From: a virus
IMG/VR virus record: IMGVR_UViG_3300014350_000112
Coordinates: 721-64,720 of that record
Length of the DNA stretch: 64,000 nucleotides
Direction: 5' to 3' (one strand)
Shown here: positions 1-49,201 of the stretch, in pieces
Position numbering within the stretch: position 1 is the first letter of the stretch
How the letters are laid out: the number at the start of each line of letters is the position of its first letter
The notes under the pieces: model-generated
What the model was told of the DNA's origin: nothing
The model's input: only the letters and a program-made list of their open reading frames with translations
Database searches by the model: none
Position numbers and translations under genes: made by a program

Positions 1-122
1 TGATTTTGTAGCCAAGTTTTCATGCGGTAATAAACTTGACCGACTTTATCGTAAGACGCGTCAAATTCCAGACGCTTTACGAGCTTTTCGACCTCGTTTT
101 TATTCAAGATGAAATTTTCCAT
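1..122 (-). CDS. Hypothetical protein, partial (runs off the left edge)
   Basis: Manual translation from ATG at 122: MENFILNKNEVEKLVKRLEFDASYDKVGQVYYRMKTWLQN; starts 3 nt after the stop of the upstream minus-strand gene. Confidence 0.65.
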   Translation of the reverse strand, partial: MENFILNKNEVEKLVKRLEFDASYDKVGQVYYRMKTWLQN

Positions 123-125
123 CTT

Positions 126-410
126 TTATTCCATTGCTGCGACGACGTTTTCGGGAAGCAATCGCCAGCTGCGGACTTCCTCCATTTTAGCGAAAACAAA
201 ATGGACGCCAGCTTGCCCAAAAAAGAAGCCTCGCCGCCACGCCGCATCTGAAAATTCAGATACGACTTGCGGTGTAAATTCTAAAAGATCCGATTCTGCA
301 ATCCGCTTCATATGTGTGTCGTAAAGAAAAAACTTTCCCACGTCTCCACCAAATTGCATGTCGTAAAGGCTGATTAGTTTTTCGATTGCGTTTATAGCGA
401 TTTTATTCAC
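126..410 (-). CDS. Hypothetical protein, 94 aa
   Basis: GTG start preceded by GAAGGA RBS; co-oriented with neighbours. Confidence 0.7.
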   Translation of the reverse strand: MNKIAINAIEKLISLYDMQFGGDVGKFFLYDTHMKRIAESDLLEFTPQVVSEFSDAAWRRGFFFGQAGVHFVFAKMEEVRSWRLLPENVVAAME

Positions 411-426
411 GTTGTTTTTCCTTCAT

Positions 427-714
427 CTAGGCCGCGCCTTTGGCGACCCACTTGATAAAAGATTCAGTAGGTTTGACGTTGTGCGCTATAACATAATGCA
501 GCGCGCCCTCTGGAATCAAATATTCCAGATTAGAATTTTTATGGGAAAGAAATATGTCCATTGATCCAAGGCGCATCTTGCAAATACGGCATATAGAATA
601 GCCTTTGTAAAATTTGCCTTTTGTGCTTTTTATTTTTTGAAAATTGGAAAGAAATTTTTTACGGCCTTTCCACGGTTTTTCGTATCGCGCGACACGCGAT
701 ATGACGTATTTCCG
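427..714 (-). CDS. Hidden ORF with CxxC...HY..HN motif (95 codons, no upstream ATG; non-canonical start or frameshift product)
   Basis: Manual translation ...YEKPWKGRKKFLSNFQKIKSTKGKFYKGYSICRICKMRLGSMDIFLSHKNSNLEYLIPEGALHYVIAHNVKPTESFIKWVAKGAA*; resembles a recurrent phage family (YRG.S.CRIC...W..PEG..HY...HNV.P). Confidence 0.55.
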   Translation of the reverse strand, partial: RKYVISRVARYEKPWKGRKKFLSNFQKIKSTKGKFYKGYSICRICKMRLGSMDIFLSHKNSNLEYLIPEGALHYVIAHNVKPTESFIKWVAKGAA

Positions 715-1013
715 TTATAAAACAAAGTGGATTTGCTGGACGAGATATGGTCAAACGCCGACTTATCAGCTACGCCGATAATTTGGCTATATTCGACACA
801 TTGCGGAATACGGTTGAAATAATCTCTTTCGAATGGTCTGTCGAAAAGAACCATAAATTCTCTATAGTTGTTGTTACCGGTTTTTGTTACAATGCCGACT
901 TCAAATATGTTGGAACCAGTTTCGGAAATAAAACAGACTTCAACAATATTCCCGGCTCGAATTTTACGGGCCTGCATCAGCGTAATGCCTTTAAGGCCGT
1001 TGACAGTTTTCAT
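630..1013 (-). CDS. Hypothetical protein, 127 aa
   Basis: ORF track; downstream of the hairpin at 1047-1081. Confidence 0.65.
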   Translation of the reverse strand: MKTVNGLKGITLMQARKIRAGNIVEVCFISETGSNIFEVGIVTKTGNNNYREFMVLFDRPFERDYFNRIPQCVEYSQIIGVADKSAFDHISSSKSTLFYNGNTSYRVSRDTKNRGKAVKNFFPIFKK

Positions 1014-1046
1014 GGCTTTATTCCCAAAAAGTTGGTGGATTTAAAA

Positions 1047-1081
1047 AAGAAAATCAGAAAAATGCTTCCTGATTTTCTTTT
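1047..1081 (-). terminator. Probable intrinsic terminator
   Basis: AAAGAAAATCAG-N11-CTGATTTTCTTT inverted repeat between genes. Confidence 0.5.
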
Positions 1082-1095
1082 TTAATACGATTTCC

Positions 1096-1401
1096 TTACG
1101 CCTTGCGCGTAAGGATGAAGTCGGAAAAAATCCGACACATAACAGTGCGGAGACGATACATGGTCTTTTCATCCACACCATGAAACAGGGTTTTGATATT
1201 GGAAAAAGCCATTTCCAATTCTTCGGAACAGGTTTTTCCGTTCTTTAGAAAACGGATTTCCTTTTCCGATTTCGTAGAACCGCAACGCATAGAAACGTTG
1301 AGATTCAACACACGGACTTCCGACTTTTTCGTGCCGGAAAGGGACGCAATGACCACGAATTTATTTCCGGGGTCAGAAATAACATTGTGGGCTTTGAGCA
1401 T
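1096..1401 (-). CDS. Hypothetical protein, 101 aa
   Basis: ATG with GAGGG RBS. Confidence 0.7.
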   Translation of the reverse strand: MLKAHNVISDPGNKFVVIASLSGTKKSEVRVLNLNVSMRCGSTKSEKEIRFLKNGKTCSEELEMAFSNIKTLFHGVDEKTMYRLRTVMCRIFSDFILTRKA

Positions 1402-1460
1402 AAAATCCCTCGCTAATTTAGAAAATGCACCATTGCATTTTCCGACTTCAATTCAAAAGA

Positions 1461-1490
1461 AAAAAGGCGAGGAATATTCCTCGCCTTTTT
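1461..1490. terminator. Perfect 30-bp palindrome, probable bidirectional terminator
   Basis: AAAAAGGCGAGGAAT|ATTCCTCGCCTTTTT, downstream of the 1539..2342 gene. Confidence 0.75.
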
Positions 1491-1538
1491 AGTTTGTGTG
1501 GAATCACATCATAGAGGAAGACGCTTCTTGAAGCCGAC

Positions 1539-2342
1539 TTACGTCTTCATGCCGTAACCGGCGATCACGGCGCGCGCCGCATAACGATCACGGCGCAAAT
1601 CATCCGACTTCCGTCCGCGCCCCAAGGCCACGTCGGCGCCGGCCTTTTCCGCGATCTTCAGAGCGAAATCAGCCGACTTATTCGCCTTCTCCCACTTTTC
1701 CTGAAGTCCGATGATACGGCGAGCGGTGGTGCGCAGCGCGATAAGCTTCTTCTTCTGATCCGCAGACTTATACATCTTCTGCAAATCGACGGCGATCCAT
1801 TCCGTGAGAAACGCCTTATCCGAAGTCGGATCAACCTGCGACTTGATCCATTCCTTCAGATCATTCGCCTTCATCTTGTCGAAGTCGATTTCTTCCGATT
1901 CCTCGTCTTCCGAATCGTCTTCTTCCGATTCCTCGTCTTCCGATTCTTCGTCTTCCGAATCGTCTTCTTCCGATTCTTCGTCTTCCGATTCCTCGTCTTC
2001 CGATTCCTCGTCTTCCGAATCTTCGTCTTCCGAATCTTCGACTTCTTCCTTCTTCGGGCGACCGCGACCGCGCTTCACGGGCTTTTCCTCGTCGTCGGAA
2101 TCATCCGACTTATCGGACCCCGCCGCGTCCTGCACGCGCGACACCTGATCCTCGTCGTCGAAGTCGACGGAAACGTTGCCCTCGCTCGCTTCCATCATCG
2201 CGGCGAAAAGAGTGTCCGTCGAAACACTCGAAAGATTCAGCGCCATCGCTGTAAGAGCGCGGGCCAAATCCGTATTGACGGGAGTAGCGATAGTGAAAAC
2301 CGCAACGGCGGTCTTATTCGACTTCTTTGCCATGATAATCAT
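1539..2342 (-). CDS. AT-hook/acidic-tract protein (HMGA-like architecture), putative nucleoid-associated protein
   Basis: KRGRGRPKK AT-hook followed by about 50 aa of D/E/S repeats and a globular C-terminus; GC-rich codon usage; AGAGGA RBS. Confidence 0.7.
   Translation of the reverse strand: MIIMAKKSNKTAVAVFTIATPVNTDLARALTAMALNLSSVSTDTLFAAMMEASEGNVSVDFDDEDQVSRVQDAAGSDKSDDSDDEEKPVKRGRGRPKKEEVEDSEDEDSEDEESEDEESEDEESEEDDSEDEESEDEESEEDDSEDEESEEIDFDKMKANDLKEWIKSQVDPTSDKAFLTEWIAVDLQKMYKSADQKKKLIALRTTARRIIGLQEKWEKANKSADFALKIAEKAGADVALGRGRKSDDLRRDRYAARAVIAGYGMKT
1888..2045 (-). repeat. 15-nt tandem repeat encoding EDEES/EEDDS units
   Basis: Repeats such as TTCCGATTCCTCGTC / TTCCGAATCGTCTTC on the + strand. 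Confidence 0.85.
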
Positions 2343-2397
2343 AGTCCTCTTGTTGGTTTATATTGAAAGTGAATTATTCACTCTCAACCAAAAATGG

Positions 2398-2429
2398 AAA
2401 AAGGGACACGTTATAACGTGTCCCTTTTT
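2398..2429. terminator. Perfect 32-bp palindrome, probable bidirectional terminator
   Basis: AAAAAGGGACACGTTA|TAACGTGTCCCTTTTT. Confidence 0.75.
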
Positions 2430-2451
2430 TCAGCATTTATTCTGCCGACTT

Positions 2452-2634
2452 CTAGTTGACGGCCAGCACGTTCCATCCGCGACGGGCCATTTGCATAACC
2501 CAATTCTTGCGCCAATTGAAATTCTCAAACTTGTTTTTGAGAACTTCAACGGTGCGGATTTTCCTGTCGTCGTTCACATTGGGAAGTCGGTAATTGCGAT
2601 TCCCCAAAAGAACCGTGACCGTATTCTTGCTCAT
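2452..2634 (-). CDS. Small hypothetical protein, about 60 aa
   Basis: ATG at 2634 with AAGGA RBS; MSKNTVTVLLGNRNY... Confidence 0.6.
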   Translation of the reverse strand: MSKNTVTVLLGNRNYRLPNVNDDRKIRTVEVLKNKFENFNWRKNWVMQMARRGWNVLAVN

Positions 2635-2651
2635 TTTGATTCCTTTCTCGA

Positions 2652-2990
2652 TCAACGAGGAAGCAACTGGTTGATTCTGATGCTGAGATGATTGTCGAGT
2701 TGCGCAATGCGCTTTTCGAGTTCGAAAATCTTGGAAAGAGCGAAATCGATCAATTCGCTTTTCGTCATTTTCTTCGGGGCCGTCGACTTCACCGACTTCT
2801 GCTTCTTCCCCAAATTCTCGAAAGCCTTTTTCGCTTTCTTACGCGCCTTCTTTTCGGCCTTCTCCGACTTCTTCGCGGCCTTCTTCGCGGCCTTCTTCAC
2901 CGACTTCACCGCATCCTTTGAGGATTGCTTTACGGTGGGAATATCACCGACTTCCGAGGTGACGATTTTATCCGACTTCTTACTCTTCAT
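2652..2990 (-). CDS. Lys/Ala-rich histone-like protein with C-terminal coiled coil, about 112 aa
   Basis: Start re-set to ATG 2990 (GAGG RBS); KKAAKKAAKKSEKAEKKARKKAKK tract. Confidence 0.7.
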   Translation of the reverse strand: MKSKKSDKIVTSEVGDIPTVKQSSKDAVKSVKKAAKKAAKKSEKAEKKARKKAKKAFENLGKKQKSVKSTAPKKMTKSELIDFALSKIFELEKRIAQLDNHLSIRINQLLPR

Positions 2991-3045
2991 AGTGGGCCTC
3001 GCTGATAGGATTATATTCAGGGATAGGGCAAGCCTCCCCATTATG

Positions 3046-3074
3046 ACACTAGCATCGATTCGAATCCACGTCAA
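3046..3074 (-). promoter_or_regulatory. Candidate host sigma70-type promoter for the left gene block
   Basis: Minus strand TTGACG-N17-TAGTGT with GCTA at the start of the -10, as in alphaproteobacterial housekeeping promoters. Confidence 0.45.
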
Positions 3075-3228
3075 CCCCGGCTAAACCCCTAAAATCTAGG
3101 ATAACATGCCTATCCGTTAACCATTTGGGCGGGAGAATTCGAATGCAAAAAAATCGGGATTGATAGGAATATTTACCAAAAAAGTATTTGAATTTATTTT
3201 TAGATATAAATCTACTAGACTTCCAAAA

Positions 3229-3837
3229 TTACTCATTTTGAAGTCGGATATTATCGTTAGATGTTTTGATAGCTAACCTAACAGCAGGGAAGTCGGAATA
3301 AAATGCTGGATAATCAGGGTGTTCTGAGGTTGCTTTAGTAATTAAAAAGTCGGAATCTAGCCAATAATCCCATGAGTTATTTTGAGCTAAGGAATATTCG
3401 ACTTCTACTAGGTAAGAAGCCATGTTAAAAACAATATTAGAATACCAATTATATTGAGATATAAAAACGATACTATAAGCCGATACTGTTAGATAATAAT
3501 TTGAGCCATCATTTCTTAAAATTCGTTCATAATATTTAGGCATAAAATTAATTAAAGGATTTCGTAAAAAGAAAACTTTTTTATTTGAATCTAAAATTTT
3601 AGAACTTTTAACGTGGTTTAATTTAGCCTCCTTTACAAAATCGTATGCGTGCATAAGATCATTTAACATAATTTTAGGTGCTTTAATTGTTTGATAACTA
3701 GCACCAGAATCTAAAAACCCTGTCTTTAAAAATGAATCTGTAAAATTAAATGGCGTTTCGCACCATTTAAAAAACCATCTATCTAATGACGGTAGTTTTT
3801 CTAAAGACAGACCAAAAGTAGGAAAAGGTAAAAACAT
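3229..3837 (-). CDS. Hypothetical protein, 202 aa
   Basis: ORF track; operon with SbcC. Confidence 0.7.
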   Translation of the reverse strand: MFLPFPTFGLSLEKLPSLDRWFFKWCETPFNFTDSFLKTGFLDSGASYQTIKAPKIMLNDLMHAYDFVKEAKLNHVKSSKILDSNKKVFFLRNPLINFMPKYYERILRNDGSNYYLTVSAYSIVFISQYNWYSNIVFNMASYLVEVEYSLAQNNSWDYWLDSDFLITKATSEHPDYPAFYSDFPAVRLAIKTSNDNIRLQNE

Positions 3838-5105: not shown

Positions 5106-7445
5106 CTATCCCTCAATAACACGAGAAATGCCATTCTTTTTTTCTATAATTAATTCATGCGCGTGGGGAGAATAAAATTCATTCTTATTAGTAGGCGTAA
5201 GTAAAATAACGGTTGAATATGCCTGTTGAACAGCGGGTAAAAACTCTTCACTAAATAATCGTCTAGAAGGTGCATCCATATTAGCTTCTATCTCATCAAA
5301 TATAATAAAGTTAAACCTTTTATCTGGAGGCAAAAACGTAGCTAAAGCAAGAGCAGACAATGCTGTAAAACACCTAGCTTCTGCACCAGATAAAGTTCTA
5401 ACATCTTCGGGTGATCTTTTATTTCTTTCAGCAAAAATACCAAAAGATGTTGATGTAATATTACAAGAAAATACCATTTTTTCTGGATACAATAAATGGG
5501 ATAAAGTATTTAAATTATCTACATAGCGATTAGCCATTGCCTCCATTTTAAAAATGCGCACTCCACGGGCACCATAGGCTTCTTTAAGTTTAGAATATAT
5601 TGAAGCATGCTTGGTTTTATTTTGTAAAATTTCAATATCATTACGTAACTTAACTGTATTTTTATGAGAAGCTTTTCCAACTTCGATTAATAATTTATAA
5701 GAAGCAATTGTTTCATTTATATTGGAAGCAGAATTGCTTACTTTATCATGCTCTTCTTTAAGTTTTATATTTTCTTTTTTTGCTTCATCTATAGAATTAA
5801 AACGCACGGGTAAATTTTTTAGAGCTTTAAAAAGGCGTTTAATTTCTAATTGCTTACTCAACTCATTTTGTAAATTTTTCTCCAATTTTTCAAAATTAGA
5901 AGATTTAATACTCTTTGGTATTTTTATAACTTTTGGTCTATTTAAAAGCTTAAAAGTCGCTTTATTTTCGTTTAGCTCTTGTAATTTTTTTAAGGTGTTC
6001 TTATTAGATAGACCAATTTTAATATCCTTTTTTAACTGGATAATTTTATCTCTTAAAGAATATGCTTCTTCTTTCAATTTTTTGTATAACAAAAAATTGT
6101 CAAATTCTTTTTTATGTGTTTCTAATTTTTGCAATGCAGTTTTAGCAACACTAAATTCCTTTTTAACTCTTTTTTGTTCAGACTCAATATGCTCTAAAGT
6201 AACTGGTTGCAAACAAGAAGGGCATTTTCCATTAGCTGAATTTATTTTAAGTAACTTTTTATATTCTTCCTTTAGTGAATGTGCTTTACCTAAAATTTTC
6301 TTTAATAATTTATCGTCTACTGGTTCTTGTTGTCTTGCTTTATTTTTAATCTTTTTATATTCATTCATTATACGTAAAAAAGTCTTTTTAGATTGTTTAT
6401 AAAGAGACAAATTATCATAATAATTATCAACGGCTTTTTTAATATCAGTAGATAATTCTTCAATCCCATCAAGTTCTGTCTTAAGCGTAACAATATTTCT
6501 CTTTATTTTTTTACTCTTATTATTATATTGTTTCAAATTTTCTTTATACTGTATATATTGTTCTTGTATTTTTCTACTTTTTCTTACTGTAATTAATTTT
6601 TCTTCTAATTTTTTAATCTTAATATTTATTTGATTTTCCGAGCTAGAATCTAAGGGTAAGGATCTTATTTCTTCTGTATCCGCCACAGCTAAAAAGGTTG
6701 CTATATTTTGTAGATGCTTTGTTATTTTATTTAATATATTTTTATTTTTTAGTTGTTTACGTTCTAATTGCTTTACTATTTTTTCTTTTTTTTCAATATC
6801 TTCTAACGAAAGAACATCACCTGTTTCTTTTAAATCTTCTTCTAATTTATCTTCCAGCTTTTTTAAAAGAGCCATGTCTGATTGAATATCTTTCAATTTT
6901 TCTGCTATAATATCAAAAGCTTTATCATATGATATAAAATCAACAATATTTTCAAAAAAAGCAAAACGCTGTGCCCCTGTTCCTTTTAAAAGAGGATTGA
7001 AACGCATCACATCTATATAATTAAAAGCATAAAATTGTTCCTCTGGTATAGGAAACAACTTGGCTATAGCTTCTTTAGCTTTAACAACTTCTCTATAAGA
7101 TTGTTCTTTTCCATTTATATTAAGACCTAGCTTTATTGAAGAACGGCCTGACATTTCTTGAGTTAAACAAAATCTATTCTTATCTTTAGAAAGAACAACA
7201 GAGATTAAGCTATTTTTCTCGTGTAGAGATTTAGCGGAATTTTTCTTAGCAGCAGATGGTGGGGCAGAATAAATTAATGTAGGTAACGCCGACAAAAGTA
7301 AGCTTTTACCTACACCATTAGCAGCATTTTCTTGTTTTCTATCTAAATTTCTACCACGAATAACATACAAGGGGTCGCTAAATTTTACCTCAGCTTCCTT
7401 ATATGTTATAATATTACGTAGAGAAATACTTTTTAAATTAATCAT
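5106..7445 (-). CDS. sbcC: SbcC/Rad50-like SMC ATPase (recombination endonuclease subunit)
   Basis: Walker A NGVGKS, long coiled coils, zinc hook CPSC, signature LSGAE, Walker B/D-loop IIFDEIEANMD. Confidence 0.93.
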   Translation of the reverse strand: MINLKSISLRNIITYKEAEVKFSDPLYVIRGRNLDRKQENAANGVGKSLLLSALPTLIYSAPPSAAKKNSAKSLHEKNSLISVVLSKDKNRFCLTQEMSGRSSIKLGLNINGKEQSYREVVKAKEAIAKLFPIPEEQFYAFNYIDVMRFNPLLKGTGAQRFAFFENIVDFISYDKAFDIIAEKLKDIQSDMALLKKLEDKLEEDLKETGDVLSLEDIEKKEKIVKQLERKQLKNKNILNKITKHLQNIATFLAVADTEEIRSLPLDSSSENQINIKIKKLEEKLITVRKSRKIQEQYIQYKENLKQYNNKSKKIKRNIVTLKTELDGIEELSTDIKKAVDNYYDNLSLYKQSKKTFLRIMNEYKKIKNKARQQEPVDDKLLKKILGKAHSLKEEYKKLLKINSANGKCPSCLQPVTLEHIESEQKRVKKEFSVAKTALQKLETHKKEFDNFLLYKKLKEEAYSLRDKIIQLKKDIKIGLSNKNTLKKLQELNENKATFKLLNRPKVIKIPKSIKSSNFEKLEKNLQNELSKQLEIKRLFKALKNLPVRFNSIDEAKKENIKLKEEHDKVSNSASNINETIASYKLLIEVGKASHKNTVKLRNDIEILQNKTKHASIYSKLKEAYGARGVRIFKMEAMANRYVDNLNTLSHLLYPEKMVFSCNITSTSFGIFAERNKRSPEDVRTLSGAEARCFTALSALALATFLPPDKRFNFIIFDEIEANMDAPSRRLFSEEFLPAVQQAYSTVILLTPTNKNEFYSPHAHELIIEKKNGISRVIEG

Positions 7446-7710
7446 TTAATAAATCAACTTTTTCAAAACGTCCATCGTGAAACTCGTCAACGGGCCGCAC
7501 CCAATAATTGCCTTCGTGTTCGTAGATAATTAAAGGTTCCATATCGCTTATGCTTCTTCCATCTTCTACTTGCAAAGAACCGATAGCTATAATTTTACAC
7601 TCAACATTACGTTTTTTGTGTTTCCATACATCACCAGCCTTAGCAGTAAATTTGACTAAATCAGATCTTTTTGGGATAACAACTATTTCGTTTTCTAATT
7701 CTTTAGTCAT
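7438..7710 (-). CDS. DUF1653-like small protein
   Basis: WKHKK...IIYEHEGNYWVRPVDEFHDGRF pattern. Confidence 0.6.
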   Translation of the reverse strand: MTKELENEIVVIPKRSDLVKFTAKAGDVWKHKKRNVECKIIAIGSLQVEDGRSISDMEPLIIYEHEGNYWVRPVDEFHDGRFEKVDLLND

Positions 7711-8167
7711 TAGTTAACTTGCCTTTCCTTTCAGATAAGAATTTAATTGTCTGCCCTTGATGGGTAGGCAGATGATTACCTTGATGAGAGGTCATCCAAA
7801 ATTCTAAATCAATTCTTTTAAATTCATTTAAAGTTAACGCGTTTTCTCTTACTACACTTTTTAAATCATTGTATTCAAAAATTCCATACATAACATAATT
7901 GGTAAAAGATATTGAGGAAAAATAAAAATAAGCTCTATGGGGTATAATAACAGGAGTTGTTATAGATAACACATCTATGTCTGGCAATGTCCATTTCTTA
8001 ACAATGGAATCAGCTTCAAATTCTAAATCACCGTCTTCGTCAATATAAAATTCTCTAACATTAATGTATAAAGAAAATTCTTTTTGATTATTTTCAATAT
8101 CTCTATTATTAGATAATACTAAAAAATCACACCCAATTTTTTTTGAAATTTTAGTAAAAGGCCACAT
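7703..8167 (-). CDS. Hypothetical protein, 154 aa
   Basis: Overlaps neighbours by stop/start coupling. Confidence 0.7.
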   Translation of the reverse strand: MWPFTKISKKIGCDFLVLSNNRDIENNQKEFSLYINVREFYIDEDGDLEFEADSIVKKWTLPDIDVLSITTPVIIPHRAYFYFSSISFTNYVMYGIFEYNDLKSVVRENALTLNEFKRIDLEFWMTSHQGNHLPTHQGQTIKFLSERKGKLTND

Positions 8168-9249: not shown

Positions 9250-10140
9250 TAAAATCCTACGACTAATTATAGATAGGCTTTACCGTATATGAGTAAATAT
9301 TGTTTATATCAAACACGGTAAAGGAATGTTACAACTTTTATTTATGGTGATAATCGCCTAGCACCGACTACGGACGCAAGCCGTCTATGAAACCATATTC
9401 GGTGATCGCTGCACTGGATTGTTTACACCTCTTGGCCGGTCTAACCGGAGCCGAATTGCTATGTGTAAACAAAATTCCTTCGTGTGCAGACTATTATTAC
9501 GTCTTGTGTCACGCGCGCGGGCCAAGGGGGTAGGGGGTTGCGGTAAAGATCCTAATATTAGATACAGGCGCAAAGTGGAGCCGAAATGAAAATCGAGAAA
9601 AAAGAGCCAAAACCGCAAAACCGGCGCGAAGCGCCTAATTTGCGTAATTGGCCTCATTTTCATAAAAGTTTTCAGGAAGGGCCGGAGGCCCTAAACCTAT
9701 ACGCGCGTAGCGCGAGGACTTTAGACGCGCGCCAGCGCGTCTTTAAAACTATAAACTATTTACCTAAAAATAACAATTCCCTATTAATACAGGAACAACC
9801 CCTTCGGGGTTGTTCCTCTACTAAGAGAATAGCTATTAGCGAAGCAGCCTACGGCTGCTTTTGTCTTCTTTCTTTTTCCTATTTAACTTTAATTAGAATA
9901 TTACGCGCGCGCAAATTAGGATTAGGAAATTATGAATTAGGATTTTCAAATTTGAATTTTTGAATTTTTGAATTTTGTTAAAACTTTTAAACAACTCGGG
10001 GAGTTAATTAAACAACAAGGTATTTTGATAAAACTTCAATAAAAAATCTTATTTCTGCCAGTTACTAATTATAAACAAGGGCGTTGCCTTTAAAAAGGCT
10101 TATAACGCCCTATTGTCACGTCTTCTTTAGTAAATAAAGG
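9250..10140. other. Divergence zone with multiple hairpins; candidate origin or structured RNA locus
   Basis: About 0.9 kb between divergent gene blocks; hairpins at 9678-9692, 9723-9742, 9791-9817, 9842-9860, 10078-10111; CGCGCG runs; AT-rich GAATTTTT repeats near 9950-9975. Confidence 0.5.
9586..9963 (+). CDS. Doubtful ORF, 125 aa
   Basis: GGAG RBS and CGGTAAA about 39 nt upstream favour it; overlap with strong hairpins and atypical composition argue against. Confidence 0.25.
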   Translation: MKIEKKEPKPQNRREAPNLRNWPHFHKSFQEGPEALNLYARSARTLDARQRVFKTINYLPKNNNSLLIQEQPLRGCSSTKRIAISEAAYGCFCLLSFSYLTLIRILRARKLGLGNYELGFSNLNF

Positions 10141-35517: not shown

Positions 35518-36159
35518 ATGGCTCGTTTGCTTAAAGCAAAAGGCAAGAAGGCCGGGATGGGCGCTGCTAAATTTCCCGGTGGTAAGAAAAAAGCGGCTGG
35601 TAAAAAGGTTGCTAAATCTTCGGCTAAATCTGTAAAGACGACTAAGAAAGCTAAGGTCGTTGCAGCTAAAGGAAAAGGCCACAAGCGCCGTCCTGATCCG
35701 TCGAAGTGGGCGAAGCGTAAAAAGCCTTATGCGTGGCAGCTTGGTGAAGGTCAGATCAAGCAGCGTATTGCTAAATATCGTCAGAAGCACTCTTCGCTTA
35801 CTAAAGCGGCTCGCCCCGCCCTTCCTAAAGCTGTTAAAGCTTATGCCCGTAAATATTTTGCGGCTACTCGTAAATCGAGCAAGCTTCGCATGTATGATAA
35901 GGTGCGTGGTGCTTTTTATAGAAAGACTCTTAAAGATAAATACGGCACAACTAATACGTCGTTTTACGCGAAGGGTTTTAAAGCTGGCCGCCGCCCCCGT
36001 AAGGGTTCTCGCACCCGTGTTTATAAAAAGACTTCTGGAAAGCGCGGTCGTCCCGCCGGTAAGAAGACTGCGGCTAAAAAAGCGCCGGCTAAACGTGGCC
36101 GTCCCGCTAAGAAGACTGTTGCCAAACGTGGCCGTGGCCGCCCCGCTAAAAAGAAGTAA
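35518..36159 (+). CDS. Histone H1-like/HMGA-like basic DNA-binding protein with three AT-hooks
   Basis: Very K/R/A-rich; KRGRP, KRGRP, KRGRGRP at C-terminus; AAGGAA RBS; own terminator. Confidence 0.82.
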   Translation: MARLLKAKGKKAGMGAAKFPGGKKKAAGKKVAKSSAKSVKTTKKAKVVAAKGKGHKRRPDPSKWAKRKKPYAWQLGEGQIKQRIAKYRQKHSSLTKAARPALPKAVKAYARKYFAATRKSSKLRMYDKVRGAFYRKTLKDKYGTTNTSFYAKGFKAGRRPRKGSRTRVYKKTSGKRGRPAGKKTAAKKAPAKRGRPAKKTVAKRGRGRPAKKK

Positions 36160-46635: not shown

Positions 46636-48564
46636 ATGAACGACTTTCATACTATTTTAGCAGCTAAACTTGCTAAAGGTTCTAAAACTAGTAAGAAACT
46701 AGTCTCCAAACCTAAAAAGAAAAAAGTCGGTAGTGGAGGTAGCATTAAGAAGACCAAATCTCCGACTACAAAAACTACGAAAACTATAGTAAAAAAAGAT
46801 ATTAATAAACGTAATGCTAATATTAAAACTAGAATGAAAAATGGCGGCGGGAAGAAACCAGCTAATCCAAATAAAGTTGAAAAAGTTTTAGAACGTCATA
46901 AGGCCCTTCAGAGTAAATCTCCTAATAAAAATATACCCATTAAAGCAGCTTTAGTAAAACAAACAAGAACAGAAACTAAAAAAGCTGTTAAGTCTATTAA
47001 CTCTAAAGCGCGTAAAGCTAATTCAAAAACTAGAACGAAAGCGGCTTCTAAGACCGCTAAAATGCGGCCTTCTCAATTGGCAAAAAAACTTGGTATGCCA
47101 GTTAAAGAAGCAGAGAAGCAAGCCCAAACTCTTTTAAATTCTGCTAAGAACCCAGTTAACTTTAATTATAAACTAAATTCTTTTCTAGGTAAATTGGGAG
47201 CGTTTACTATTAACGCTTTATTAGTTGGTGGTGCTGTAGCTGGCGTAACCGCATTAGCTGTAGCTTTACCAACTTCAATCCAGTTAGTGTTAGGTGCAGG
47301 CCTAATGCAAATGATTGCTGGTGGTTTAGGAATTTCAAAAGCCTCAGATGAAGATGAAGGTAATTCTTATAATTTTCCTGCTTTGAATAATTTAATTCCT
47401 GTTTTAGCTGATTATATAAAAAGCGGTAACTTAGAAGAAATTTTTGGAATGATAGAATCAATGTCGGACGATCCAGAACATGACGATGCTAGTAACAAAA
47501 AGAAATTTTTAACATATTCTCATAAAAATATTTTAAATAGATTAGAAACTCTTTCTGGAGTGACACCTAATTCCCGAATTAAGCGTTTAGCTCCTATAGA
47601 ATATCCAGAAGCAAGTATATATTCTTCTGGTATTTATGTTTGTTGGTCTTTAAAAAGAAGCTGCGCCGTAAAATTGGAACAGTGGGCTAGGGACAATTCA
47701 ATTCCTAATGTGAAGCCCGCTAACTACATGCATTGCACTATTATTATGTCTAAAACATCACCCATGATTTTAGACGCAAAAAAGAATTATTTTGAAGGCG
47801 CTGGTTTATTTAAAAAACCTTTATCTCCACAGAGATTAATCAGGCTTAGAAAATTAGGGCCTTCTGCTATCGTTATTGAAATGGAATTTTATGAAGCGCA
47901 TAATCGTTTTGAAATGTTAAAAGATTTGGGATGCACTTCCGACTTTCCTTCTTATGTAGCTCACGTAACTGTTGGTGAGGATAAAGAAGTCTTGATTAAT
48001 AATAAGAATCTTAAGGCAATAAGCCTTCCTACTTTTCCATTAGAATTTGATTATGAATATTGCGGTCCATTATTAGATGATAAAAAACAACGTCATGCTG
48101 TTAATGCGTCTACCGACGTATTAGATGCCCTTGTTTACAAATCAAAAAAAGCAGCCTTAACCGATAAAGTTTTACGAAAGAAAAATACTATGCTAGTTAA
48201 TAAAACATTTGCTTCTGTATTGGCTTCTTCTATGGAAGAACTTGCCGGTCGTAAAAAGAAGGCAGTTGATCCTTCTCCTCCTAAACATCGTAAAAATGCA
48301 ATTAAAGAATATCGGGCTATAATTGAATTTTTTAAAGAATTTGATTTGACTAAAAAGATAACCGAAATTGAAGAAATGGTAGATGCTGCAGAAAAAGTTT
48401 CTGATAAAAACGAAATGAAAGATCTTGCTAAAAAATTACGTGCTATGGTTGATACTGATTCTGGTATTATTAATAACGACTTTTTCTCTAAATGTTTAAA
48501 GCTTGACGATGGCCCTAAAGAAATTGCCCGTTCTTTGTCTCGTTTAGCTAAATATAAAGAATAA
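46636..48564 (+). CDS. Multidomain protein: Lys-rich N-terminus, TM hairpin, Acb1/T4 gp57B-like 2H phosphodiesterase, helical C-terminus
   Basis: GIYV...IPN......MHCTI...LGCTSDFPSYVAHVTV...FDYEYCGPL matches the Acb1 pattern GLYV...VPN.....IHSTI...LGATHDFDDYTPHITL...LDREYKEPL. Confidence 0.82.
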   Translation: MNDFHTILAAKLAKGSKTSKKLVSKPKKKKVGSGGSIKKTKSPTTKTTKTIVKKDINKRNANIKTRMKNGGGKKPANPNKVEKVLERHKALQSKSPNKNIPIKAALVKQTRTETKKAVKSINSKARKANSKTRTKAASKTAKMRPSQLAKKLGMPVKEAEKQAQTLLNSAKNPVNFNYKLNSFLGKLGAFTINALLVGGAVAGVTALAVALPTSIQLVLGAGLMQMIAGGLGISKASDEDEGNSYNFPALNNLIPVLADYIKSGNLEEIFGMIESMSDDPEHDDASNKKKFLTYSHKNILNRLETLSGVTPNSRIKRLAPIEYPEASIYSSGIYVCWSLKRSCAVKLEQWARDNSIPNVKPANYMHCTIIMSKTSPMILDAKKNYFEGAGLFKKPLSPQRLIRLRKLGPSAIVIEMEFYEAHNRFEMLKDLGCTSDFPSYVAHVTVGEDKEVLINNKNLKAISLPTFPLEFDYEYCGPLLDDKKQRHAVNASTDVLDALVYKSKKAALTDKVLRKKNTMLVNKTFASVLASSMEELAGRKKKAVDPSPPKHRKNAIKEYRAIIEFFKEFDLTKKITEIEEMVDAAEKVSDKNEMKDLAKKLRAMVDTDSGIINNDFFSKCLKLDDGPKEIARSLSRLAKYKE

Positions 48565-48568
48565 TTCT

Positions 48569-49201
48569 ATGGCTAAGAAAATTTCTACTGTTAAGGATAA
48601 AAGAAAAAAGTCGGTAATAAAACCTTCTTCTAAAAAACAGGCTGTGAAAAAATCTACTAGTAAACAGAATGACAAAACACCTTTAAAGAAGCCTTTTGTT
48701 AAAGACCCTTTTTATGTTACACCTATAACCCAAAAGGATCTTCCCGAAAATAGAGTTGTATGGAACAAGCAGTCATTCATTAATAATGAAGTTGATGTTC
48801 CTCGTAAAGATGCAGTTTCTCTAAAACCTGTTATGGTTCCTAAGAGTTCTTTGCCGCCGGATAAGTCTTTTAAGGCAGCAGGCTTTGCCCTTAAAACAAA
48901 AATAGCTTTTGAAAACGTATTACATTCTGTTCAAACATTACGAGAACAACGAGTAGCTTTATTATTAGACGACGTAACTAGAGAAGTAAATTCCTTAGAA
49001 GATTCATTAAAAGCAAAAGATAATCGTATAGATAATAATGAAATTTTAAAACGAACTAAGAAACTTCATAATATGGTTCGAAATGTAGGAGATTTTGTAA
49101 TAATAGAACATTACATACGAGATATAAGAAAAACAATAGAAAGCTTATGTAATCATATTTACTCTTCATTAAAAGAAGTCGGCAAATCTAATTTTAAGTA
49201 G
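48569..49201 (+). CDS. Hypothetical protein, Lys-rich N-terminus and coiled-coil C-terminus
   Basis: ORF in late block. Confidence 0.7.
   Translation: MAKKISTVKDKRKKSVIKPSSKKQAVKKSTSKQNDKTPLKKPFVKDPFYVTPITQKDLPENRVVWNKQSFINNEVDVPRKDAVSLKPVMVPKSSLPPDKSFKAAGFALKTKIAFENVLHSVQTLREQRVALLLDDVTREVNSLEDSLKAKDNRIDNNEILKRTKKLHNMVRNVGDFVIIEHYIRDIRKTIESLCNHIYSSLKEVGKSNFK

Follow-up and report, generated by a model that had tools for sequence, protein, structure and literature searches.

The DNA analysed here, referred to as the window, is a 64,000-nt stretch of an uncultured large phage (positions 721-64,720 of the IMG/VR record IMGVR_UViG_3300014350_000112); the island was analysed in the context of the 66.6-kb contig, which is itself a fragment of a larger genome. 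The left end of the window is occupied by a GC-rich block (1-3080, minus strand; GC content 0.40-0.59 vs about 0.31) of small co-directional genes without relatives, which on the genome starts ~200 nt before the contig does and reaches genome position 3800. No families or homologues were found for the island genes, and no relatives in IMG/VR or among 5.8 billion proteins. The block is genuine phage sequence; AT-rich phage DNA lies on either side of it, its junction is bridged in other assemblies, and pieces of it are present in an independent marine sample. Neither in the island nor elsewhere in the 66.6-kb contig did searches with Pfam and PHROGs reveal a domain that binds specific DNA sequences.

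Between positions 40 and 3353 the 7-mer CCGACTT/AAGTCGG occurs in 21 exact copies (~6.3 per kb), and this region of ~3.3 kb is hereafter called the core domain. CCGACTT is on the plus strand in 15 copies and on the minus strand in 6. An exact recount returned all 21 coordinates, the 7 copies elsewhere in the window and the 15 vs 6 split that had been given in an earlier sequence-only reading, and its expectation of ~0.4 copies is close to the 0.63 obtained with a first-order Markov model for the left 4.1 kb.

The leftmost copy of the core (40-46, +) lies in a 47-aa gene in the K-V-G frame, and the next two (758 and 895, spanning 758-901, +) are in gene 630-1013 (−) in the K-S-A and E-V-G frames. 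Gene 1096-1401 holds one copy in its tail (1118-1124, −; S-D-F frame), within a hairpin at 1107-1130, and another at 1320-1326 (+; K-S-E frame). The 267-aa gene 1539-2342 (−), whose product has an AT-hook and a long acidic tract, carries four copies within 1604-2111 (1604+, 1673+, 1823−, 2105+), and the 67-aa gene 2452-2655 carries one at 2584-2590 (−; Y-R-L frame). Three copies, all on the plus strand, are non-coding: 1442-1448 has the start codon at 1401 on one side and a terminator hairpin (1461-1490) on the other, 1534-1540 overlaps the stop codon of gene 1539-2342 by 2 nt, and 2445-2451 lies between a terminator (2395-2432) and gene 2452-2655, ending 1 nt before its stop triplet. These three had been described as intergenic copies right after stop codons; they are indeed non-coding, but their precise positions are those given here.

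The sole sizeable intergenic gap of the block is at 2991-3228. It contains four GATAGG/CCTATC boxes (3004, 3022, 3109 and 3162), such that 4 of the window's 13 copies of GATAGG fall within 164 bp, and on its minus strand TATAAT is found 19 nt upstream of the ATG at 2990, together with a GAGG ribosome site. The two densest heptamer groups flank this gap, inverted relative to each other, with a 262-bp core between them. The left arm consists of five same-orientation copies (2792, 2864, 2900, 2947 and 2972; 2792-2978, +) within 187 bp of the Lys-rich gene 2652-2990 (−). The right arm consists of three copies in the opposite orientation (3241, 3290 and 3347; 3241-3353, −) within the final 45 codons of AT-rich gene 3229-3837, where three copies had also been placed before, and it ends in a sharp right domain edge. 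The inverted five-and-three layout could be a consequence of the available codon contexts; the tail of the 202-aa gene permits antisense-type heptamer opportunities only.

One possible interpretation of this bracket is a packaging, terminus or first-entry signal, in which the gap would be a cut site or a genome end and the heptamers would be bound by the small subunit of a terminase or by a protein that binds ends or pulls DNA. The five and three opposite-orientation copies around the 262-bp core are arranged as such a signal might be, and the sharp right edge with a density that declines leftward over ~9 kb resembles a run that starts at one point and proceeds one way. In phage P1 pac, seven TGATC(A/G) hexamers, four plus three, flank the cleavage region; P1 pac, with words that are Dam-methylation sites, measures ~160 bp in total and adjoins the packaging genes. 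The heptamer array is likewise composed of two groups of a short word around a central core, but it has 13 further copies over 3 kb, and we know of no pac or cos site that needs these. In addition, there is no terminase gene nearby or elsewhere in the 66.6-kb fragment, and contigs from assemblies read straight across 2991-3228 without a break. We consider a packaging signal quite improbable. Contigs crossing the gap are still compatible with a permuted or terminally redundant genome.

The excess of the heptamer is local and the word is sharply defined. Dinucleotide shuffles of the whole window gave a mean of 4.4 heptamers and a maximum of 10, compared with the 28 observed. The remaining 62.5 kb contain 7 copies vs 3.8 expected; this does not fit a genome-wide signature word of the uptake-sequence or HIP type. 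DNA uptake sequences and HIP1 are similar in that a short exact word occurs in unrelated genes and in all frames, but they are spread genome-wide, whereas the heptamer is restricted to one sharp-edged domain. The exact heptamer is found 21 times, and all 21 one-mismatch variants sum up to 18. With its flanks the consensus is D-CCGACTT-C; the leading G that gives GAAGTCGG is present in 14/21 copies, and the TCCGAC context in 11/21.

A word that is exact, short, asymmetric and tolerant of orientation is also what Type IIS, IIG, III and BREX-type sites look like, and TCCGAC matches the MmeI-type word TCCRAC. The heptamer might be recognised by a methyltransferase or by some other enzyme that modifies or senses DNA, with the local surplus serving regulation or as a decoy. 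However, phages normally lose such sites rather than accumulate them, searches of the contig turned up neither methyltransferase nor restriction domains, and we know of no mechanism that profits from a local surplus of restriction or modification sites. A restriction, modification or defence word appears highly improbable.

The copies are distributed over coding contexts in a way that proteins alone do not account for. Eighteen of the 21 are in genes, spread over 8 genes and 6 frame-and-strand classes, and the frames are K-S-x (9), (K/E)-V-G (3), S-D-F (3), x-R-L (2) and P-T-S (1); this per-copy table bears out the claim that the heptamer occurs in differing frames and on both strands. Together with the three non-coding copies, it does not fit a coding tandem repeat, the class to which the CGATCAC cluster of G001 belongs, as do those loci of the IMG/VR triple-word scan that were tabulated or examined closely. 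When synonymous codons were shuffled with the proteins kept (5000 shuffles), the GC-rich genes gave 4.3 ± 1.8 heptamers with a maximum of 11, compared with 15 observed, and the AT-rich gene 3229-3837 gave 0.08 expected vs 3 observed. In a ranking of all 7-mers, the heptamer (z = 5.8) and the overlapping CGACTTC (z = 6.8) were the top outliers other than tandem repeats. Positions at which the protein sequence permits the heptamer were realised in 18/29 cases in the core (~60%) vs 6/189 elsewhere (61 control genes; Fisher P = 3.6e-14). The sequence-only reading had argued for a DNA-level signal rather than codon bias, a claim that would have fallen if a codon- and amino-acid-preserving shuffle gave similar counts; the shuffles do not reproduce them, so the claim stands. 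The heptamer array is a genuine signal at the level of the DNA, not a product of codon bias.

The same data bear on the reading that the array has no function and arose incidentally from internal duplications, from low-complexity coding for Lys/Ser/Asp/Glu and from codon-pair bias that came with a foreign GC-rich block. About 4-5 of the 15 in-gene copies are indeed expected from protein sequence and codon usage, Lys-Ser dipeptides are frequent, and the block is compositionally foreign. Some copies also share a longer repeat, TTCACCGACTTC, that is found twice, and some in the Lys-rich gene may be related through internal duplication, in which case the copies are not all independent. What speaks against a by-product, besides the shuffle maximum, is that three frames, both strands and non-coding sites are used, that near-variants are fewer than exact copies, that copies continue into the AT-rich flanks including a 30%-GC gene, and that a GC-rich 168-aa gene and a GC-rich late Lys-rich gene carry none. 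Outside the block, the GC-rich Lys-rich gene 35518-36159 has the heptamer at 0/3 permitted positions. The no-function reading is already disfavoured, and we regard it as very unlikely.

The heptamer domain and the GC-rich block have different borders. The first ~960 nt of the block have no heptamer and 0/5 opportunities realised, and the remaining 720 nt of the contig left of the window also contain none. The next 6.4 kb leftward, taken from another contig (L122), hold 7 heptamers vs 0.57 expected (P = 2e-6), separated from the copy at 40 by ~2.2 kb. The suggestion that the array continues to the left is therefore correct for this thin tail, but the density of the core is not maintained. At the right edge, 3/4 local opportunities are realised and then 0/14 across the next three genes; in the left arm the figure is 5/6. 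The AT-rich flanks on both sides carry heptamers, the right one with 3 copies in 113 bp and the left one with the 7 in its 6.4 kb; one gene among them has 30% GC. The heptamer domain overlaps the ~4-kb GC-rich block without coinciding with it, and heptamer placement is independent of base composition. A minor second cluster is present at 46724-49182 (46724−, 47939+, 48608−, 49176−), in which two copies lie in an identical 17-nt stretch near adjacent gene starts.

Orientation relative to the genes is informative about whether the word is read on RNA. T4 RegB cuts GGAG in early mRNAs, and by analogy AAGUCGG in the leftward transcripts might be the target of an endoribonuclease, an RNA-binding protein or a small-RNA seed that shuts the operon off. 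In the GC-rich block 15/18 copies have AAGUCGG in the same sense as the leftward genes, the three non-coding copies being among them, and 7 nt is a typical length for a seed or a cleavage site. However, antisense copies make up 6/21 in the core and 3/7 in the left tail, the trio at 3241-3353 is wholly antisense to its own gene, and the rates at which antisense and sense opportunities are used are similar (in the per-gene table tally for the core, 6/11 or 55% of antisense-type and 12/17 or 71% of sense-type). No Rfam family was found in the block. An RNA-level signal is scarcely probable.

Several known DNA-level arrangements were compared with the array. Besides a packaging or ejection signal, a Chi-like signal and a mark on first-entering DNA, a parS-like tether had been among the earlier proposals, but the word is asymmetric, the spacing is irregular (25-718 bp) and no ParA/ParB family was found in the contig, so the layout is not that of parS or a plasmid-type centromere. 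The spacing, irregular and without helical phasing, gives no sign of ordered cooperative binding. The omega protein of plasmid pSM19035 binds 7-bp WATCACW units, direct or inverted, in operator and centromere arrays; the likeness lies in the 7-bp unit, the use of both orientations and the position beside promoters, and omega occupancy is set by copy number. The omega heptads, however, are contiguous and intergenic, while the phage heptamers are 25-718 bp apart and mostly intragenic, and neither a ribbon-helix-helix nor a ParA gene was found. The datA DnaA-box titration locus and the parS clusters near oriC, with ~4-10 sites of 9-16 bp that are often palindromic and spread over larger distances, resemble the array in having many sites of one protein within a few kb, some of them intragenic, and differ in having a known reader protein, whose gene is in the same genome. 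Replication-origin iterons or a DnaA-box cluster do not fit either, as 18/21 copies are intragenic, the block is GC-rich and no initiator gene is adjacent. Closer to an origin in layout than the heptamer array are the 37-nt repeats found in L122 and a non-coding stretch of 0.9 kb at 9250-10140, which are origin candidates by layout.

The main rival is that the heptamer is the Chi of the host, the signal that makes a RecBCD/AddAB-type helicase-nuclease give up the degradation of linear DNA in favour of recombination; the array would then be a firewall or a recombination-start zone by a DNA end or break. The heptamer is short, asymmetric, exact and placed regardless of reading frame, as Chi would be. 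GAAGTCGG is the S. aureus AddAB Chi GAAGCGG plus one inserted T, and AGTCGG within the heptamer resembles the B. subtilis Chi AGCGG. If a DNA end is assumed within the gap 2991-3228, 18/21 copies face it alike (18:3). This polarity, however, makes CCGACTT the active strand, unlike the G-rich known Chi, and with G-rich polarity the arrays converge on the gap. Without such an end, the orientation is 15:6 (19:9 for core plus left tail), and both orientations are realised at similar rates. A screen for the heptamer in 401 genomes of one phylum found no convincing hyper-abundant carrier.

A precedent for a Chi-like reading is provided by the terminal Chi clusters of the lambdoid phage LLS (GCTGGTGG, 23 sites, 20:3, concentrated at one end) and the Pseudomonas phage MD8 (GCTGGCGC, 32:0, terminally clustered) (Genome Res 2025, PMC12315714). 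These arrays resemble ours in that a short asymmetric exact word occurs in ~20-30 copies in one part of the genome, is intragenic in any frame, and is common relative to its near-variants; in the last 6 kb of LLS, by our own count, 7 exact and 12 one-mismatch Chi copies show a similar sharpness. They differ in that the word there is the known Chi of the host, the orientation bias is near-total and the cluster abuts a mapped genome end, whereas the heptamer array is split 15:6 and known from contigs. Our recount for LLS gave 12 Chi sites (10:2) in the last 12.9 kb, a density of about 1 per kb vs ~6 per kb for the heptamer. Phages of the LLS class lack a recombination/anti-RecBCD module of their own, whereas the phage studied here encodes a UvsX/RecA-like recombinase, an SbcC-like protein and an SSB, which places it outside that class. 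We consider a host Chi rather unlikely.

Our preferred reading, held tentatively and at somewhat less than even confidence, is that the domain is a multi-site, high-density zone around the gap 2991-3228 at which one sequence-specific DNA-binding factor loads or nucleates. The surplus of copies, the exactness of the word, its indifference to frame and strand, the borders of the domain and the arrangement around the gap are observed; that a protein reads the word is our inference, and what is said below of its identity and of the effect of binding is conditional. CCGACTT/AAGTCGG would be a recognition word read on the DNA itself, whose copy number selection would have raised inside the bounded ~3.3-kb domain, the word being written in through synonymous codon choice and probably also through favoured Lys-Ser dipeptides. 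The reader may be one phage or host factor, although the Pfam and PHROGs searches of the contig yielded no candidate for it, with loading centred on the promoter-bearing gap, which is bracketed by the five copies to its left and the three inverted ones to its right. Occupancy would spread from the gap into the transcribed small-gene operon and thereby control, mark or tether the accessory block. Sites of transcription factors are usually degenerate, dyad-symmetric and intergenic; an exact, asymmetric and mostly intragenic word suits DNA-tracking, word-reading enzymes at least as well as a transcription factor.

A bolder version, which we regard as possible but rather doubtful, is that the phage labels one accessory block of foreign composition with its own 7-letter word to near saturation, and that a dedicated reader treats that DNA differently. 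The word may then be a new Chi-like word of the GAAGTCGG type that surrounds a programmed break or a DNA end with a nuclease firewall, or a private address label for silencing, tethering or first-loading the block.

Chi, uptake sequences and parS show that short words read on DNA organise the protection, movement and recombination of bacterial and phage DNA. To our knowledge, very few such words are known for phages, and a domain-scale DNA mark written via synonymous sites has not been described for large phages. The clearest phage case, the terminal Chi clusters, was described only in 2025 (PMC12315714). The presence of the heptamer at ~60% of codon-compatible positions amounts to strong synonymous-site selection, suggesting that something reads the word. 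The 3.3-kb fragment, with copies that can be removed synonymously, is a clean test object. The identity of the reader would reveal either a Chi-type word of an unstudied host or a new way in which a phage labels part of its genome, and, if the address-label or the Chi-like firewall reading is true, the array would be a domain-scale mark of that synonymous-site kind.

An exact search of the window returned 28 copies of the heptamer CCGACTT/AAGTCGG. The sequence-only reading had placed 21 of them at positions 40-3353, 15 on the (+) and 6 on the (−) strand, and about seven elsewhere; all 21 matched precisely, the strand split was reproduced, and the number outside the array was exactly seven, at the positions claimed. 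Shuffles of the window preserving dinucleotides gave 4.4 ± 2.1 copies (maximum 10), compared with the 28 observed. A first-order Markov model predicts 0.63 copies in the left 4.1 kb, where the word is the most frequent 7-mer, and it is also the top locally clustered 7-mer of the composite sequence, in which the only others were the Asp-codon tandem repeats of the SSB tail. The word is sharp: its 21 one-mismatch variants pooled amount to 18 copies, fewer than the 21 exact ones. Its flank preferences are weak: C never precedes it and G never follows it, and C follows in 14/21 copies. A modification-linked role of the word seems to us very improbable.

The window corresponds to bases 721-64720 of one virus contig, which is 66,603 bp long. 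Its replication and repair genes encode an SbcC-like protein, a clamp loader, SSB and a UvsX/RecA-like recombinase with an intein, and it also encodes a NAD-dependent ligase, an Acb1-like domain, thymidylate synthase and dUTPase. Because the DNA polymerase is ~30% identical to those of 255-315-kb jumbo phages, and a 129-kb IMG/VR relative is rated 48% complete, the contig is taken to be a fragment of a large uncultured phage. It occurs in public runs of two independent origins, a bioreactor study and a marine metagenome; no RNA runs were listed among them.

The left end of the contig has a GC content of 0.40-0.59, versus ~0.31 elsewhere. An overlapping ENA contig, L122, matches genome positions 1-1450 (contig numbering) at 100% identity and reaches 6.4 kb further left into AT-rich phage DNA, so the GC-rich block is an internal island of ~4 kb (genome −200 to 3800) and a chimeric contig end is excluded. 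The right junction is bridged by the JGI/IMG contig, a 24.8-kb ENA contig (99.97% identical) and a 17.7-kb Logan contig, three contigs that may share one source study; in the independent marine sample both sides of the junction were present at equal depth, with 46 nt unbridged among the pieces listed. The block consists of about ten small co-directional genes on the (−) strand with strong bidirectional hairpin terminators between them, and no mobile-element flanking repeats were found around it. One of its proteins (267 aa) has an AT-hook and a 75-residue acidic tract; another (113 aa) is Lys-rich in one half and has a heptad-repeat C-terminus.

To separate the word from codon bias, synonymous codons were shuffled 5000 times among the block's ten GC-rich genes, with all protein sequences and the pooled codon usage left unchanged. 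These genes contain 15 copies, whereas the shuffles gave 4.3 ± 1.8 with a maximum of 11, so the check that had been named earlier as decisive against a DNA-level signal did not reproduce the count. Shuffling codon order gave 1.6 copies, and the AT-rich gene 3229..3837 contains 3 copies where synonymous shuffling predicts 0.08. When all 7-mers were scored by the same shuffle, AAGTCGG (z = 5.8) and the overlapping CGACTTC (z = 6.8) were the strongest outliers, tandem acidic repeats aside. We then enumerated every opportunity, meaning a three-codon context in which synonymous choice could yield the word in either orientation. The core (window −21 to 3353) realised 18/29 (62%), whereas 61 control genes elsewhere in the window realised 6/189 (3%; Fisher P = 3.6e-14) and the 6.4-kb extension on the left realised 4/18 (P = 0.006 vs controls). 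The phage's other GC-rich, Lys-rich gene, the control 35518..36159, realised 0/3. Lys-Ser-rich coding could account for about one third of the in-gene copies and not for the remainder; the array is statistically very strong, and we give little credence to its having no function.

The copies fall into six frame-and-strand classes and eight genes, with three in non-coding DNA, which bears out the earlier claim that they disregard frame, strand and coding status. Within the core, the per-gene tally gave similar rates for sense-type (12/17) and antisense-type (6/11) opportunities, so the 15:6 strand ratio is largely set by which peptides are available. These similar rates argue for recognition of the word independently of transcription sense; no Rfam families were found in the island, and a signal acting at the RNA level is in our judgement very unlikely.

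The array is also bounded. No copy occurs in the first ~960 nt of the GC-rich block, a stretch that includes a 50%-GC gene for a 168-aa protein and realised 0/5 opportunities. The right edge is sharp: the AT-rich gene 3229..3837 has its three copies within the final 45 codons, and the next three genes realised 0/14 opportunities. Left of the core, ~2.2 kb are free of copies and then a thin tail appears, with 7 copies in 6.4 kb versus 0.57 expected (P = 2e-6). Density peaks at the right end of the array, where five copies in one orientation lie within 187 bp (2792-2978, the left arm) and three inverted copies within 113 bp (3241-3353, the right arm). Helical phasing or regular spacing of the copies was not seen. 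A second, minor cluster, four copies in 2.5 kb, lies at window 46724-49182. Two of these are embedded in the same 17-nt sequence, once near the start of the Acb1-like gene and once near that of the next gene; the two genes probably have a basic N-terminal peptide in common.

The two arms are separated by a 238-bp gap (2991-3228), and the block has no other sizeable intergenic region. Of the 13 GATAGG/CCTATC hexamers in the window, four lie in this gap within 164 bp (3004-3167), at 3004, 3022, 3109 (−) and 3162. On its (−) strand, TATAAT lies 19 nt upstream of the ATG of the Lys-rich gene 2652-2990 (−), which has a GAGG ribosome site; the hexamers may be operator boxes around the TATAAT element. 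The gene caller of the public record places a 125-aa Phe-rich ORF at 2692-3084 (+), opposite the Lys-rich gene. The Lys-rich reading runs in the same direction as its neighbours, has the GAGG site and shares 4 nt with the next gene; on these grounds it seems to be the real gene.

No family or homologue was found for any block gene in the collections searched, Pfam, PHROGs and the ESM Atlas gave nothing usable on the function of the island's proteins, and neither the 127-aa nor the 202-aa protein had a relative in IMG/VR. Among 5.8 billion proteins, three queries each matched only themselves (the 127-aa protein, the C-terminal portion of the 267-aa one and the 125-aa ORF), and the 90% protein clusters contain near-identical strain variants only. 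Strain variant L121 is 99.97% identical; L128, from another ENA assembly that probably represents the marine sample of run X3, shows 99.6% identity and retains the three copies of the right arm, its differences being too few to inform. Between the marine and bioreactor strains, the differences listed (amid unrelated low-complexity contigs) amount to ~2-10% divergence with indels over genome 1-533, 1996-2652 and 3119-3788, versus 0.4% in the adjoining AT-rich genes (genome 3835-6153); the GC-rich block thus appears to evolve or recombine faster than its flank.

An IMG/VR scan for three word copies within 15-45 nt gave at least 118 loci, and every listed locus with at least 6 copies was tabulated. 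Two of them, L081 and L107, proved on detailed reading to be tandem peptide-coding repeats, and the other top clusters had same-strand copies with spacings mostly in multiples of 3; no array comparable to the core was found among the loci listed. The 129-kb relative (IMGVR_UViG_3300013121_000034), a distant one whose SbcC-like protein is 39% identical, shows no clustering of its 23 copies. A word that does cluster there, CGATCAC, was rejected as a similar array, being a 30-nt periodic coding repeat; at 81-97 kb this relative carries ~70 same-strand ACGATCAC copies whose spacings are multiples of 30 nt, which encode a repeat with a 10-residue period in very long genes that are probably fibre-like. 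Neither spelling of the word was found in the relevant literature.

The leftward contig L122 carries several further features. At 7507-7865, ~6.8-7.1 kb beyond the left end of the window, lie a tRNA-Lys(UUU) gene and, after it, a tRNA-Leu(UAA)-like gene split by a group I intron (Rfam RF00028, 64 bits). In the 5' exon of the latter, a 27-nt stretch is identical to plastid trnL, which may hint at a cyanobacterial host or donor. At 6200-6520 are ~8 units of a ~37-nt repeat (GAACC, ~12 nt, then GATTTGTT), non-coding, adjoined by two heptamer copies and upstream of a gene for a 219-aa acidic protein; it could be an iteron or promoter array. The proteins of L122 6762-7421 and window 1539-2342 have a common architecture, with an N-terminal MAKKS, a long Asp/Glu tract and a C-terminal GRGR-x-DDL; their BLAST similarity (E = 0.004) is confined to the last motif, which looks like a helix-extension-helix (SAP/Rho_N-type) element. 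Amid small phage genes, L122 4781-5773 encodes an IS110-family-like transposase (PHROG 4285, E = 1e-37) whose gene contains two heptamer copies 44 nt apart.

Searches for the host led to none. Close relatives of this transposase were absent from GTDB genomes. Matches to the tRNA-Leu exon were limited to short scaffolds of unrelated assemblies, classed as plastid contamination by their size alone, and to one 21.8-kb contig of a Clostridia MAG, rejected as a host lead since its sequence is plastid-like. Across 401 genomes of one phylum, GAAGTCGG was usually rarer than its reversed control. The one apparent outlier was G361, a genome from the Clostridia-containing phylum, in which the 8-mer was ~3-fold over a uniform-composition estimate and the 7-mer 2.5-fold over control; its control word was nearly absent. 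This control, GGCTGAAG, occurs 7 times in 1.7 Mb, and since it contains CTGAAG its scarcity may reflect restriction-site avoidance.

The main rival, which we consider unlikely, is that the heptamer is a Chi-like word. GAAGTCGG resembles GAAGCGG, the Chi of S. aureus, into which one base has been inserted. There is precedent in the Chi clusters of lambdoid phage LLS, whose 23 sites, oriented 20:3, gather at one end of its genome (2025; PMC12315714), and of Pseudomonas phage MD8, with sites oriented 32:0 (PMC12315714). In the last 12.9 kb of LLS we confirmed 12 sites (10:2), and the ratio of exact to near-variant sites in LLS resembles that of the array. These recently described clusters are the closest in kind to the array, which differs from them in density, orientation and context: it is six times as dense as that of LLS, and its overall orientation bias is weak. 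The Chi-like reading would also need the word to be the Chi of the host. Also against it, the phage encodes its own recombination genes and no known terminus lies nearby. A packaging or terminus signal strikes us as a distant prospect.

The exact asymmetric word, the selection on copy number, the tolerance of orientation, the bounded domain and the density peak at a promoter-type gap together point to a specific, putative factor that reads the word on DNA. Pfam and PHROGs gave no candidate reader in the contig, and an exact word placed within genes is unusual for regulator sites. Our preferred reading, held tentatively, is nonetheless that the array is a multi-site loading or nucleation zone for a candidate DNA-binding protein. 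The zone would have its centre at the gap and reach into the operon.
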